Assembly (NCBI GenBank): GCA_964016885.1
Contig: OZ024741.1
Coordinates: 234,980,001 to 235,044,000 of the forward strand
Direction of reading: 5' to 3'
DNA length: 64,000 bases
Source of the DNA: Eledone cirrhosa
Lineage: Eukaryota
The number at the start of each line of letters is the position of its first letter. Position 1 is the stretch's first letter. The notes under the pieces are model-generated. The model saw only the letters and a list, made by a program, of their open reading frames with translations, had not been told where the DNA came from and ran no database searches. The position numbers and the translations under genes are program-made. Shown here piece by piece: positions 2,026 to 61,509 of the stretch.

Positions 2026-2283
2026 TGGAAAGTTATATTTAAATTGTTGGGTTACAACTAGTAAATATTTATAACTGATATAAAAGCACTCGACAAGTAT
2101 TTGGAGTATATTTACGATATTAAATAAATGGAAACTATATTTATAAAACCATATTTATTTCATTATATATATTTCAGGGATAACATATTAACAATATGCT
2201 ATGCCTTCCTTGTTATCCCTGAAATATATATAATGAAATAAATATGGTTTTATAAATATAGTTTCCATTTATTTAATATCGTA
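2026..2283. mobile_element. Family A fold-back Penelope-like insert between (TA)n tracts
   Basis: Inverted arms; homologous to 5186-5669, 23243-23650 and 41580-42088. Confidence 0.75.
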
Positions 2284-3577
2284 TATATATATATATATAT
2301 ATATATATACATATACTGTATATATATATATATATATATACTGTATATATATATATATATATACAGTATATATATATATTTTATTATTTTAAATCGATAT
2401 GGACAAACTGTAGTATAATAATTAGTATACTTCAATCTGGCTAAATTTTTCTTTTGCAATATATATACAGATGTGTTGGTATTTGTGTTTCATCACTTAC
2501 ATATTAATTTATACACTGCTCATGGGATATTTTTCCTCATTCGAGCTGATTCCATTGTAAAAGAATTCATTACCTTATATATATATATATATATATATAT
2601 ATATATATATATATATATATATATATATATATATATATATATTTATATATATATATATACATGCACGTTAGTGTATTTTGGTGAGTTTATGTGGTAGTTG
2701 GTCTGTGTATATGAATCTGTTCATGCGTATGTATGTAGGTATCATAATATATATTATATTAAAACTTTGCATATACAGAGAGAGAAATCTAACATGACTA
2801 CTCCGAGATACACAAAGGAGTCAGATTCCACGCGAAGTACTTCGTGGAATTCAAGGTAGTTTTGGCAGATAAGTTTGTCACATGATGTATGACGTGTTTC
2901 TTATGGATTATTGCTGAAATTATGACCTGTCATTCTAACATTTTTTTTTCTTTTACGTTTTCACTTCGATATTAAATTTTTGATTTTTGTATAGTATTTG
3001 TAATATTTGTAATATTTGTAATATTTACTGTAATATATATTCTCTGCCAAGCAAAGTCCAGAGATTTTGACACCTCCTCTGCAAGTTTTGGCAGGCGATC
3101 CACTTCATCCATTTTATTTCAATATTATTTTTGCCTTACATCTTTTCCTTACTTTCGATTTTTTAATAGCTTAGTCAAAGTAGGAGAGCTGCAGCCCATG
3201 ATCTTTTCCATGACATCTCGGAATGGTGGTAGAAAGGAGCAGAATGGTTGCAACTGATAGGACTCCGATACTAAAGATACCAAAGGAGACGTGGTTATTA
3301 AACTGGGAGACATATTAAACTTACCAATTAAAGAACAAGAAAGGTCCCTTCCAATTCCGACGGGCTTCCTCACAGTTTCCGTCTACCAAGAGTTTAGTCA
3401 ATCCGAGTCTACGTATAAGGATTTCTAGAAAAATTACTTTGATGCGAAACCATCAGTGTTATATCCAGGCTCGTCACCACAGTTTTGTGCTCGGCAGATG
3501 TGGTGGGAATGGAATGACTATTTCAGGACATATTCTATTAACTCCTTTTTTTAATTTGAGGGTTTGAGAGTGCTTTA

Positions 3578-3678
3578 CACACACACACACACACACACAC
3601 ACACACACACACACACACACACACACACACACACACACACACACACACACACACACACACACACACACACACACACAC
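3578..3678. repeat. (CA)n microsatellite
   Basis: Pure CA tract. Confidence 0.98.
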
Positions 3679-3994
3679 CTTCATTGACGTCAGACTTAGT
3701 TATATCTAGTAACCATGTATTTGTTAAAGTTAGTATTTTCTTCTGCATGTATATAGTTTATAGCGTATCCTGTTATATTAACCCTGCCACTCATTATACA
3801 CATTTTAAAGGCATTAGAATATCATTTTGTAATAGTTATTTTATACATTGTCCTTAGATAGGTGCTGAAAATGTAAACAATATTTTTTTATATGGCCGCT
3901 GTTGTTTCAGAGAGAATATTTGTATTGGACGATTGTTTAGTGAATGTAAAAAGGGTTTAAAACGTTGCTAAAACTTCTCCTTTTTGTTTACGTT

Positions 3995-4249
3995 TATATC
4001 AAGTTCACTTCAAAATTTTCAAGGTTCTTAAACTGGGATGAGAGAAGATCTGTTTTGTGATTTGAAGCCGACGAGTCAGACGTAAATGTGTAAGTTTGTG
4101 GGTGTATTAAGTTTTTCTTTAGTCCTGCATTATCTTATGTTTCAATGACGTAAACACGTACGTCTGACTCGTCGGCTTCAAATCACACAACTGATCTTCT
4201 CTCACCCCAGATTAAGAAACTTGAAAACTTTGAAGTGAACATGATATAT
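3995..4249. repeat. Fold-back element / MITE-like inverted repeat
   Basis: ~95-bp arms (3995-4090 vs 4152-4249), e.g. GTGATTTGAAGCCGACGAGTCAGACGTA / TACGTCTGACTCGTCGGCTTCAAATCAC. Confidence 0.75.
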
Positions 4250-4517
4250 CACGGGCGGTGGAATCATTTCTGAATTGGTGCGGGGTGCAAATTTGGACAA
4301 TCTGGTTGTAGTGATTTATTTAGGTCTTTCCACTCTAAAATGGTCAGAAAACTTCGATATGCGATAAACATAACATGTACATAAATTGTAGCGCATATCC
4401 AAATAGATGTGTGTTTTGGTAGTTTGGGGAGAAAAATATAATTATTGCCTTCATATAAACCTCAATTATGAATCTTGCTATGTTATATATATGTACATAT
4501 ATATATATATATACACA

Positions 4518-59200: not shown

Positions 59201-59335
59201 GTCTATGCGTTCTGTCAAGGTTGACCATGCAGCTCACTAACTTGTGGTCTGAATAGCCAACCATGCGCATTTTTGGACAACTTAAAAAGTCCATATCCTT
59301 ATTTCTAACTAAGAACCTATCTAGGTACGACCTAG
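56220..59335 (-). mobile_element. Second, diverged Tx1/L1-clade LINE, 5'-truncated in the APE domain
   Basis: YLDRFL, SDHKLV, GPGYWKLN, KSPGLDGLPYE, IRQGCPLS, SADDVT; many frameshifts. Confidence 0.88.
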
Positions 59336-59939
59336 ATGATAGTTAGATAGATAGAATTCCTGATATGGGATGCAGTAAACTTGGTCTGCGCTATTTGTGT
59401 AAAACGTTAACTACAGTTAATTTTATGACAATAGATATTTTATCTGGAAGTTCATGTAGGAAGTTGTTCAAATCTATTGGTGGATGAAAAAGACGCACTG
59501 CAATACATCAGAATACTCTTTTACATAGTAATGCGCACATATGCAGCTTTTTTTGTAAGGTTTGCTAAATCTATTGGTAGATTAAAGAGGCAGGGCTATA
59601 CACCAGAACACGCTTCTTCATGGTGATATGCACATATGCAGCTTCATTTATTATGAGGCCTATCAAAAGACAAGTACAAGACCGCCGGGCTTAAAGGGCA
59701 CCTTCGAAAACACGATTTCTTTTAATAGTGCTGGTTATCTTCGGGCACGACCGTATCGACCTTAGTACATTTTTCAAACCTGATACTTATTCTATTGATC
59801 TCTCTTTGTCGACTCGCTAAATTATGGAAAATGAGCACCGACACAAACGTAAACACATACCCCTCCCCATATATATATGTGTGTATGTGTGTGCGTATAT
59901 ATATATATCTGTGTGTCTGTATGTGTGTGTGTATATATA

Positions 59940-61215
59940 CAGGGGTCGGACAAAATAATGGAAACACCTAGCATCATAGCATCATCATTTTGAAATATCT
60001 ATAAAACCGTCAAAAGCTTGTTTATTTTTATGTTTTTTTATTTATTTATTATTAGTGTTGCTTAATATGTTTTGTTAAAATTGCAGTTTCTTTTCAGATA
60101 TCATCAGAAAAAGGTAATAAAAATTCATTAAAATGACAGATCTATCGGACTTTCAAAGAGGTCAAATTGTTGGTGCTTGTATGGCAGGCGCTAGATTAAC
60201 GGAAACAGCCGAAATGTTTGGTGTATCAAGAAGTAGTGTCTCGAAAGTAATGACAGCCTTTGAGAAAGAGGGAAAAACCTCCTCGTCGAAACAAAACTCC
60301 GGAAGAAAACCAAAACTGTCAGATAGGGACCGTCGGACTCTTACGCGAATTGTTAGAAAGGATCACAAAAGTACAGCTCCCAAAATTACTGCAGAGCTTA
60401 ATGACCACCTCGAGAACCCAGTTTCCACAAAAACTGTTCGCCGGGAGCTGCACAAAGCCGGATTTCACGGGAGGGCTACAATCAGAAAACCACTACTTTC
60501 AAAACAAACGTTGCAAAGCGTTTAGAGTGGAGTAAAAACCTACAGAATTGGTCCCTAGAGCAGTGGAAGAATGTTATTTTCTCGGATGAGTCATCCTTTA
60601 CCTTATTTCCGACCACCGGCCAAGTATACGTGTGGAGACAGCCAAAAGAAGCATTTGACCCAGACTGACTTCTTCCAACTGATAAACATGGAGGAGGATG
60701 TGTGATGATCTGGGGAGCTATATCTTGGAAATCCGCCGGCCCAATGGTTTCCCTTCATGGCAGAATTAATAGTCAAGACTATTTAAGCCTTTTATCTGAT
60801 CAAATTCATTCTATAATTGCGGAACTGTTTCCGGAGGGAAACGCAATCTTTCAGGATGATAATGCACCAATTCACACAGCTAAAGTTGTTACTGAATGGC
60901 ACGAGGAACATTCTAGTGAAGTTGAACATCTTATCTTGCCACCAGAGTCCCCAGATCTCAGTATTATTGAACATTTATGGTGCATTTTAGAAAAACAAGT
61001 AAGGAGTCGATATCCTCCACCATCATCACTACAAGAACTGGAGACTGTTTTAGCTGAAGAATGGACAAACATTCCTTTGGAAACAATTCAAACTTTGTAC
61101 GAGTCCATGCCTCATAGAATTGAAGCTTTAATTACTGCCAAAGGCGGTCCTACCCCATATTGAAATAAATTTGTTTGAAATTTTAAGGTGTTTCCATTAT
61201 TTTGTCCAACCCCTG
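59940..61215 (+). mobile_element. Full-length Tc1 transposon
   Basis: 30-bp TIRs CAGGGGTYGGACAAAATAATGGAAACACCT; TA target duplication. Confidence 0.95.
60133..61163 (+). pseudogene. Tc1 DD34E transposase with a frameshift (~60505) and a stop (~60666)
   Basis: MTDLSDFQRGQIVG, SGRKPKLS, IFSDES, FQDDNAPIH, SPDLSIIEHLW, AKGGPTPY. Confidence 0.92.
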
Positions 61216-61221
61216 TATATG

Positions 61222-61509
61222 TTAGGTATTTCCGAAGAAAAAGCAAAGTAAAAAAGAGTGCTCTATGTATAGAACAGAGCTATTTAATTAGAAAGTAAAC
61301 AACACAATATATAACCACTCCATTACCAAAGGTTTCAGGACCCTAGACAATATTAAAATACAACTAGATCGTTCATCAGACAGAGATGTCATCTCTGATA
61401 ATAACATCTCTGTCTGATGAACGATCTAGACGTATTTTAATATTGTTGTCTAGGGTCCTGAAACCTTTGGTAATGGAGTAGTCATATATTGTGTTGTTCA
61501 CTTTCTAAT
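61222..61509. mobile_element. Family D fold-back insert with hammerheads 61317-61386(-) and 61408-61478(+)
   Basis: CUCUGU-CUGAUGA-..CUAGAC..GUCUAG..-GAAA-CC-uuu-GG-UA-AUGGAG. Confidence 0.8.

Follow-up and report, generated by a model that had tools for sequence, protein, structure and literature searches.

Hammerhead-bearing fold-back inserts in Eledone cirrhosa DNA: ends of Hydra-clade Penelope-like elements with a hairpin pair that may set both starts of reverse transcription

Many short inverted-repeat inserts sit beside short interspersed nuclear elements (SINEs), long interspersed nuclear element (LINE) pieces and Tc1 pieces in a 64-kb stretch of Eledone cirrhosa DNA (contig OZ024741.1, positions 234,980,001 to 235,044,000; hereafter the window, in whose own coordinates positions are given), and the question raised by this locus is what these inserts are and how they acquired their fold-back shape. 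A sequence-only reading of the window had proposed that they are tiny, hammerhead-bearing insertions of Penelope-like elements (PLEs) or of non-autonomous retrozymes living in microsatellites. We hold it as nearly certain that the inserts are the ends of PLEs and, judged from their sequence, they are mostly 5'-truncated 3' ends of Hydra-clade PLEs, together with at least one non-coding tandem retrozyme. These elements are new members of an already known clade, and the hammerhead/PLE system itself is already published; the part that we did not find described is a pair of hairpins, HP1 and HP2, tied to the two ends of the insertions. No description of the pair or of this tie was found in open PMC papers or bioRxiv, with subscription papers, Repbase notes and the supplement of Frangieh et al. 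lying outside that scope, and Craig et al. 2021 (PMC8557442) leave the pair unmentioned in their main text, though it is visible in that paper's consensuses.

Hammerheads were scanned with a strict type I descriptor (CUGANGA, closed helix II, GAAA, helix III, UH and a helix I of at least 4 bp), which gave 15 matches on the two strands, while 60 block dinucleotide shuffles averaged 0.07 and never exceeded 1, so the hammerhead density is far above that of shuffled sequence, the comparison suggested with the sequence-only reading. All 18 sites named in that reading are hammerhead-derived: 11 are strict matches (5317, 5563, 14689, 18830, 22424, 22710, 22996, 23534, 41982, 50273 and 61408), five have an intact core with a 10.1/11.1 mismatch, a helix I bulge or a helix III mismatch (10825, 15968, 20579, 23883 and 44783), and two have a U4C core change (21842 and 45799). 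For 10825 and 20579 a U.U at 10.1/11.1 is what their families normally have, and it is frequent in published Hydra hammerheads (PMC8557442), while 5317 and 5563 are the two arms of a single insertion. Further motifs were found at 17592, 22597, 23430, 43945, 61318 and 15657 (minus strand), with decayed hammerheads at 21545, 41766, 8279 and 6811. The stem covariation claimed earlier was present, including three family D stem I variants, as were the palindromic helix III loops, two of which (CGAUCG and CGCGCG) come from inspection by eye of decayed arms around 13385, 29890 and 45735. Helix III was predicted to form a homodimer (-2.2 to -8.2 kcal/mol) and to leave the monomer unfolded in families A/B, C, G/J, I, K, D and D3, and to fold as a monomer in H and E; as a folding prediction, the suggested dimer-type helix III is therefore right for most families. 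The Rfam search proposed at the same time returned at gathering scores only a U6 copy in the window and nothing in 20 further loci, and when run by E-value it gave no hammerhead family among the matches listed (150 of 319), which were swamped by microsatellite-driven microRNA families. Several hammerhead families (L187, L198, L267, L262, L059 and L076) have a U3-A8 core, a group to which family E of the window belongs and which is missed by CUGANGA scans. Decayed minimal hammerheads of other PLE families lie at 50440-50890, 45080-45230, 13900-14050, 19560-19800 and 1790-1923, the first adjoining, by eye, the end of a GIY-YIG-like open reading frame (ORF).

Walking upstream from family A reached near-full-length copies, of which L051 (about 4.3 kb) has the order pseudo-long terminal repeat (pLTR), tail, ORF, 1.4-kb 3' untranslated region (UTR), pLTR and inverted 5' copy. 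A search for full-length elements sharing the pLTRs, as the sequence-only reading had advised, linked families A, B, D, E and G to Hydra-type ORFs, family E being counted as autonomous because its query (41290-41500) mostly retrieved a reverse transcriptase (RT) fragment and not the hammerhead. The set given as diagnostic of Hydra in PMC8557442 comprises RWK, DKT, CxCX5C, CxxC/CxH and no CCHH. RWK and DKT (in place of DKG) were found in A, B, D, E, G, L053 and L056, and the CxCX5C linker, with CxxC and CxH near the C-terminus and no CCHH, in A, B, E and G; the family D protein was read over the ORF start and an RT piece, where CxCX5C, CxxC and CxH were not seen. There is a single ORF with an RT followed by a GIY-YIG endonuclease at the C-terminus, by eye its RT motifs agree with those of the published Hydra alignment, and the hammerhead in the pLTR and the insertion into (TA)n are likewise as in the Hydra clade. 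The references compared were Hydra-1_Obim, Hydra-2_Amil, Hydra-1/2_Ajap, Hydra-1_Crog and Penelope-n_HM, and the assignment to Hydra is one by motifs. The family A ORF is frameshifted in L051 and has a 635-aa open stretch in L060, and uninterrupted Hydra ORFs are present in neighbouring families at L053:8-2359 (+; 784 codons) and L056:5122-7866 (-; 915 codons), L056 also having a pLTR, the two hairpins and (TA)n at each end. Searches of Pfam, NCBIfam and solved-structure sequences named no domain in the Hydra ORFs, which have 674 homologues, such homologues being about 35% identical to the local ORF; among the look-alike clusters of these ORFs, some have GIY-YIG and RVT_1 annotated in part of their members. 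Family C had no adjoining ORF in four 8-kb loci and no HP2 match. No ORF link was obtained for C, F, J, K, M, N, D2 or D3, the upstream search among these eight having covered C alone; the tail hairpin is present in C, F, J, K, D2 and D3. Overall, the earlier readings of PLE pseudo-LTRs, inverted 5' copies and microsatellite targets were right and can be sharpened to the Hydra clade, while the retrozyme reading stands for family H, perhaps for I, and falls for A, B, D, E and G; these five are autonomous elements that have been truncated. The conserved hairpin pair of the tails had escaped that earlier reading.

The hairpin is built from RCTC, then a stem-loop of unrelated sequence, then a bulge of 2 nt whose first base is U, and then GAGY, often followed by RCU. 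Two copies of it, separated by 55-95 nt, lie between the hammerhead and the ORF; full-length and tandem elements read hammerhead, HP1, HP2 and then the ORF or the next unit. The outer pair switches between A-U and G-C, and a GUUC/GAAC variant exists. In the window the hairpin pattern has 22 matches compared with 1.7 in shuffled sequence, and 13 compared with 0.1 when the RCY box is required. Some upper-stem pair counts are circular because the sequences were picked by a pairing descriptor, and the non-circular tests of pairing are a comparison of outer pairs near and away from microsatellites and a test on metagenomic flanks. In the former, with pairing not required, the outer pair was A-U or G-C in 19/23 microsatellite-near clusters versus 11/95 elsewhere. 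A hairpin follows the hammerhead in 17/29 hammerhead clusters and 87/311 copies (antisense 4 and 7). In families A, A2, E and H, and in two neighbouring ones, HP2 lies directly beyond the tail end of arms. A prediction that family D should have it was borne out: 9 of 28 pattern matches there share the spacer and 3 run into the ORF start, the other 19 having an unshared spacer and being mostly (CA)n chance matches. In three family D loci (L272, L277 and L283) HP2 bears an apical insert of ~60 nt, and HP1 of families J and K one of ~50-70 nt, the base being kept and the top free.

For the metagenomic test, a scan with the Hydra alignment gave 77 loci, whose best segments are 40-58% identical to the first sequence of the alignment, and the 45 loci with at least 90 nt of 5' flank formed an out-of-sample set. 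A paired hairpin was present in 30/45 flanks and two in 12/45 (antisense 1, shuffled 0.7, ORF middle 2); by sequence alone, the 3' box was found in 36/45 and two boxes in 24/45. Without pairing being required, the first upper pair was paired in 51/55 at the 2-nt bulge versus 2, 4, 9 and 22 at other offsets, and was Watson-Crick in 48 compared with a permuted mean of 31 and maximum of 41. The usual order in these loci is again hammerhead, HP1, HP2 and ORF. Among 34 loci examined, 26 have both pLTR copies and 16 have the point of divergence inside the contig; the 3' pLTR copy ends 1-11 nt before the hairpin in 8/16 by script and in 2 more by eye. In published Hydra consensuses, read by eye, the hairpin is clear in 3/6 (twice in Hydra-1_Ajap) and near in 1.

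The ends of the fold-back arms fall into two sharp classes, short ends, which lie 5' of HP1 by a few nt, and long (tail) ends, which lie likewise 5' of HP2, with tails of about 60-90 nt; short-end copies are without the hairpin because it is absent there by construction. Of 131 fold-backs from seven families, 106 combine a long and a short end and 1 has two long ends; no case with two short ends occurred, and the remaining 24 include an unclassed arm. Among the genome loci, 339/388 classed arm ends adjoin a microsatellite. The tail-less arm reaches further 5' in 48 of the 106, the tailed arm in 26 and the two are equal in 32, and a simple snap-back from the tailed cDNA is excluded because the tail-less arm is so often the longer. 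Arms differ less within than between insertions in families A (1.9 versus 5.3%), D (4.8 versus 8.1%) and G (4.3 versus 10.2%).

By its DNA anatomy, family H is a putative non-LTR retrozyme. Its unit of ~450 nt has one hammerhead, a longest ATG frame of 51 aa and 36% GC; three head-to-tail units (451 + 449 nt spacing) lie in L269 and two in L242 and L252, in a search that favoured long copies, and both HP1 and HP2 are kept. Family I has a 431-nt direct repeat at one other locus (L145) and may be another retrozyme. At L065:4655-5225 a tandem unit with 542-nt spacing has a hammerhead and both hairpins, with no ORF seen, and appears to be a second retrozyme-like family. Family H resembles described non-LTR retrozymes in being non-coding, low in GC and tandem, with one type I hammerhead per unit, and its 450 nt is slightly above the 170-400 nt given for those of invertebrates (Cervera and de la Pena 2020, PMC7229834; Li et al. 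2026, 10.64898/2026.07.22.740005), papers in which PLEs were proposed as the retrozyme mobiliser. It differs from them in forming PLE-type fold-backs in (TA)n whose ends lie at the same two hairpin-linked points, a candidate cis signal that we did not find named in those papers.

Together, we consider likely a twin-hairpin mechanism in which PLE ends are formed with each hairpin setting one start of reverse transcription; the start-setting role of the hairpins is itself a proposal that we favour with some reserve. A dimer of the RT/GIY-YIG protein would bind the RNA, with one subunit on each hairpin, and would nick the two strands of a (TA)n tract. The 3' OH at each nick would then prime about 5-9 nt upstream of its own hairpin, helped by the U/A-rich spacer, and the two cDNAs would run 5' on one RNA, the tail-started cDNA displacing the other. 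Both would stop early, and joining of their ends would leave an inverted duplication in which a single arm has the tail. A retrozyme that keeps both hairpins could borrow the Hydra protein in trans, and the hammerheads would process tandem transcripts, mostly as dimers and in H as a monomer (from the helix III folding predictions). We lean, by a little only, towards the widest form of this proposal: that in Hydra PLEs across animals a two-copy RNA signal docks a dimeric telomerase-related RT, fixes both cDNA starts, explains tail and fold-back, lets retrozymes hijack the PLE protein and marked some 190,000 insertion ends in this genome.

In L1 twin priming, two target-strand primers on one RNA lead to a 5' inversion. 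In the process proposed here the second start is instead fixed and marked by structure, and the cDNAs overlap widely, leading to an inverted duplication. The elements are like the published Hydra clade (PMC8557442) in their motifs, pLTR hammerhead, (TA)n targets, truncated inverted 5' copy and one-sided tail; that paper lists one octopus Hydra family, Hydra-1_Obim, with (TA)n targeting and a hammerhead. Published Hydra comprises few families, of less than 3 kb and with a 30-40 nt tail, whereas here there are many families, a family A of about 4.3 kb and the longer tails given above. The minimal hammerheads of Cervera and de la Pena 2014 (PMC4209133) are also of type I, with a palindromic helix III for dimer cleavage, an extra helix II base and a U3-A8 variant, and those here share the type, the palindromic helix III, the additional base where helix II begins and the U3-A8 core variant; unlike that set, they have an inter-box stretch of 11-95 nt, often A-U or U.U at 10.1/11.1, and some long helices III. 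In the Anolis Poseidon PLE PAc, two internal RT starts bound the tail, both strands are cut and extended, the protein is a predicted dimer and the hammerhead is dispensable for insertion in vitro (Frangieh et al. 2024, PMC11167929). The elements here would be like PAc in having two starts that bound the tail, cutting and extension of both strands and a dimeric protein, and are unlike it in that each end lies just 5' of its own hairpin copy, upstream of the ORF and in a U/A-rich spacer. A 2026 octopus repeat annotation reports 31 recently active PLE families, and the accessible part of its text does not use the word ribozyme.

The main rival explanation takes the hairpin boxes to be promoter or translation signals of the pLTR, with the endonuclease or TA microhomology setting the ends. 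Both hairpins are indeed 40-150 nt upstream of the ORF start, the nearly invariant lower stem could be read as sequence, and the spacer, with T/A at -6 in 56/57 and A/T at -5 in 49/57, could alone seed (TA)n priming. However, the upper-stem pairs covary without pairing being required, the non-coding retrozyme retains both hairpins, ends stay 6-7 nt from the hairpin at less TA-like spacers (G HP1 in 4 copies; HP2 of the L056 family), and other TA runs in the AT-rich UTRs rarely serve as ends; we consider this explanation unlikely. It is more doubtful still that a single cDNA snapping back, or two RNAs held together by a hammerhead dimer, gave rise to the fold-backs in place of twin priming on one RNA. 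The self-complementary helix III of most families, the 26 of 106 fold-backs whose tailed arm is the longer, and the L016 arms, which come from different subfamilies, would suit such an origin. A longer tail-less arm is impossible for snap-back from the tailed cDNA, which was rejected on this ground. The idea of a two-RNA template in a hammerhead dimer, raised by L016, is unsupported by most copies: the two arms have non-majority variants in common (147 shared sites in family A), in A, D and G they differ less from each other than from arms of other insertions, and two RNAs alone would not force one tail per insertion.

That the inserts are miniature inverted-repeat transposable elements (MITEs), terminal inverted repeat (TIR) transposons or assembly palindromes, with hammerheads as chance folds, was weighed as well. 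Within the window they are short inverted repeats without ORFs, and the Hydra ORFs match no RT or GIY-YIG family of Pfam. Yet the strict hammerheads far exceed chance, five families link directly to Hydra-type ORFs whose look-alike clusters are partly GIY-YIG/RVT_1, and the symmetric TIRs with fixed ends of a DNA transposon were not found, the ends being asymmetric in 106/107 fully classed fold-backs and the inner junctions variable. An assembly artefact was rejected too: arms differ by 2-12%, and family H is covered over its whole length by contigs from public runs (possibly of the same sample). This explanation is refuted for A, B, D, E and G and extremely improbable overall.

Several observations weigh against the twin-hairpin mechanism itself. 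Twelve of 29 hammerhead clusters lack the hairpin (several of them with 2-4 copies only), family I has it in 1/17 copies (antisense 3) and the Neptune-like element described below is without it, as is Hydra-1_Obim, with Hydra-1_Amil doubtful (both by eye). The prediction of HP2 failed in C (0 matches) and in G (6 chance-like matches, none with a second hairpin or ORF), family B shows the 3' box alone in one copy, and HP2 upper stems often have 1-2 bp only. In B, C and E the similarity of arms within an insertion does not clearly exceed that between insertions, and the arms of L016 differ at five subfamily positions. TA microhomology blurs the exact start, the last matching base being mostly 2-7 nt from the hairpin. 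The loci were picked by similarity to window queries, and overlapping ones were imperfectly de-duplicated (L222/L223, L263 and L067/window each occur twice in the arm comparison). Finally, Poseidon PAc starts inside an AC-rich stem-loop within the ORF that lacks homology with the target (PMC11167929).

Five families account for the inserts of the window that belong to elements with Hydra-type ORFs. Family A has a fold-back stub at 2027..2281 (hammerhead core lost at the junction; HP1 2085-2107 (-)) and fold-backs at 5187..5667 and 41580..42086. The former, with (TA)n at both ends and full-length relatives L051, L060 and L061, has its tailed arm on the minus strand (hammerhead 5317-5381, HP1 5247-5269) and its tail-less arm on the plus strand (hammerhead 5563-5627); the latter has a hammerhead at 41982-42046 (+), a C3U copy at 41766 (-) and HP1 at 41640-41662 (-). 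A fold-back of a family A subfamily lies at 23243..23646 (hammerhead 23534-23599 (+), core 23430 (-), HP1 23302-23324 (-)). The family B fold-back at 17553..19021 is interrupted by a SINE and has hammerheads at 17592-17656 (-) and 18826-18888 (+) and a tail hairpin from 18939; another family B fold-back is at 49993..50371 (hammerhead 50269-50331 (+)). Two 98% identical tail arms of another family (17360-17530 and 19106-19523) face each other across the first, which may reflect local re-insertion or a larger inverted duplication. Family D has a fold-back at 61221..61507 (hammerheads 61318-61385 (-) and 61408-61478 (+); HP1 61257-61280 (-)). Family E is represented by stubs at 8822..8988 (3' half of a hammerhead, relatives with the U3-A8 core; HP1 8917-8943 (+)) and 44146..44282 on the plus strand (HP1 44211-44237), and by a fold-back at 41236..41553 with a Hydra RT fragment at about 41372-41481. 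The family G fold-back at 20506..21375 has its tailed arm on the minus strand (hammerhead 20579-20616, 1-nt-bulge hairpin 20543-20565) and an endonuclease fragment (20983-21330) in its plus arm.

The family H retrozyme insertion at 14165..14892, a non-coding unit of ~450 nt, has a hammerhead at 14689-14768 (+) with an 8-bp helix III and a GUC site, HP1 at 14458-14482 (+) and 14205-14229 (-), and HP2 at 14535-14556 (+). Family I forms a fold-back at 10562..11156 (hammerhead 10825 (-); no clear Hydra hairpin), family F2 one at 11321..11520 (HP1 11466-11487 (+)), family F one at 22978..23150 (hammerhead 22996-23042 (-), HP1 23090-23111 (+)), family C one at 22551..22939 (hammerheads 22597-22688 (-) and 22710-22803 (+); HP1 22865-22892) and family D3 one at 44641..44871 (hammerhead 44783 (+) with a helix III mismatch; HP1 44678-44701 (-)). 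The inverted arms of family J (15496-15700 and 15930-16136, spanning 15496..16136) carry hammerheads with a long helix II at 15657 (-) and 15968 (+) and, as read by eye, an extended tail hairpin. Single arms belong to family D2 (tailed, 21412..21646 on the minus strand, with a decayed hammerhead of core 21545 and HP1 21423-21446; tail-less, 22272..22498 on the plus strand, hammerhead 22424-22495), and, all on the minus strand, to family J2 (21792..21965; hammerhead 21842 with the U4C core change), family K (tail-less, 23830..23990; hammerhead 23883, relatives with the extended hairpin) and family N (43900..44080; hammerhead 43945-44027). Family M forms a fold-back in (TAA)n at 45690..45935 with a decayed hammerhead (45799, U4C), and is the centre of a 1-kb inverted repeat (45296-46267) of an R4/Dong-like LINE 3' end and (TAA)n, which looks as if flanking DNA had been duplicated along with the insert. 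The insert at 6578..8335 is a fold-back of a distinct, non-Hydra PLE, Neptune-like by its motifs, with a GIY-YIG fragment at 7678-8049 (+) that has a Pfam-detectable relative and hammerhead-like cores at 8279 (+) and 6811 (-); the Hydra hairpin was not seen in it. Directly adjoining it, the U6 small nuclear RNA copy at 8393-8496 (-) scores 81.8 bits; its 5' end is altered and runs into (TA)n, a short internal stretch is deleted, and it is probably a retrocopy.

Simple repeats make up about 10 kb of the window, leaving 53,762 non-satellite bases. The other repeats we take, from their ORFs and general features, to be RTE, CR1, L1/Tx1 and R4-like LINE pieces and Tc1 elements, and the very common SINE is presumably of Nin type. 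Two Tc1/mariner elements (30316-31420 and 59940-61220) have terminal inverted repeats and nearly intact transposase frames. That the inserts dominate the non-satellite DNA was too strong a claim: PLE pieces occupy 20% of it, or 30% counting probable pieces, and LINEs plus Tc1 31%. The claim that they dwell in microsatellites held, (TA)n/(CA)n lying within 15 nt of at least one end in 24 and of both ends in 17 of 28 intervals drawn by eye, against a one-sided background of 4.8%. Across the 3.0-Gb host assembly, first-look candidates numbered 1,899 for family A, 1,225 for B, 2,694 for C, 1,778 for D and 1,185 for H, with 40 scored for each, and families A and H include copies that are 98-100% identical. 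The hairpin pattern has 206,147 matches genome-wide compared with 16,204 for a reversed control, an excess of about 190,000, or one per 15.8 kb; the window, with 13 matches against 4.1 expected, is about threefold denser than the average and yet no special locus. Queried with the endonuclease piece 20983-21330, the genome gave 50,758 first-look candidates, of which 150 were scored, and an 82-nt piece of a Hydra RT gene forms a tandem array of about 30 copies at G000:C14:30149485-30151909. The Hydra clade, published as small, is hugely amplified in this genome.

How PLE reverse transcription starts and how the one-sided tail and inverted copy arise is given as an open question in PMC8557442 and is only partly answered, for one Poseidon element, in PMC11167929; the enzyme that mobilises animal retrozymes is likewise left open in PMC7229834 and 10.64898/2026.07.22.740005. 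A covarying hairpin pair at a short, nearly fixed distance from the ends makes both questions testable by mutation, and L056, with its intact ORF, pLTR and both hairpins, is a good natural candidate for biochemistry. The hairpin also provides a short search pattern for a very abundant class of repeats missed by Rfam and Pfam. If the proposed role is true, the pair would explain the lopsided fold-back shape of the insertions and, taken jointly with the whole reading at a likelihood that we put barely above even, would be the cis element by which non-coding retrozymes hijack the PLE protein.

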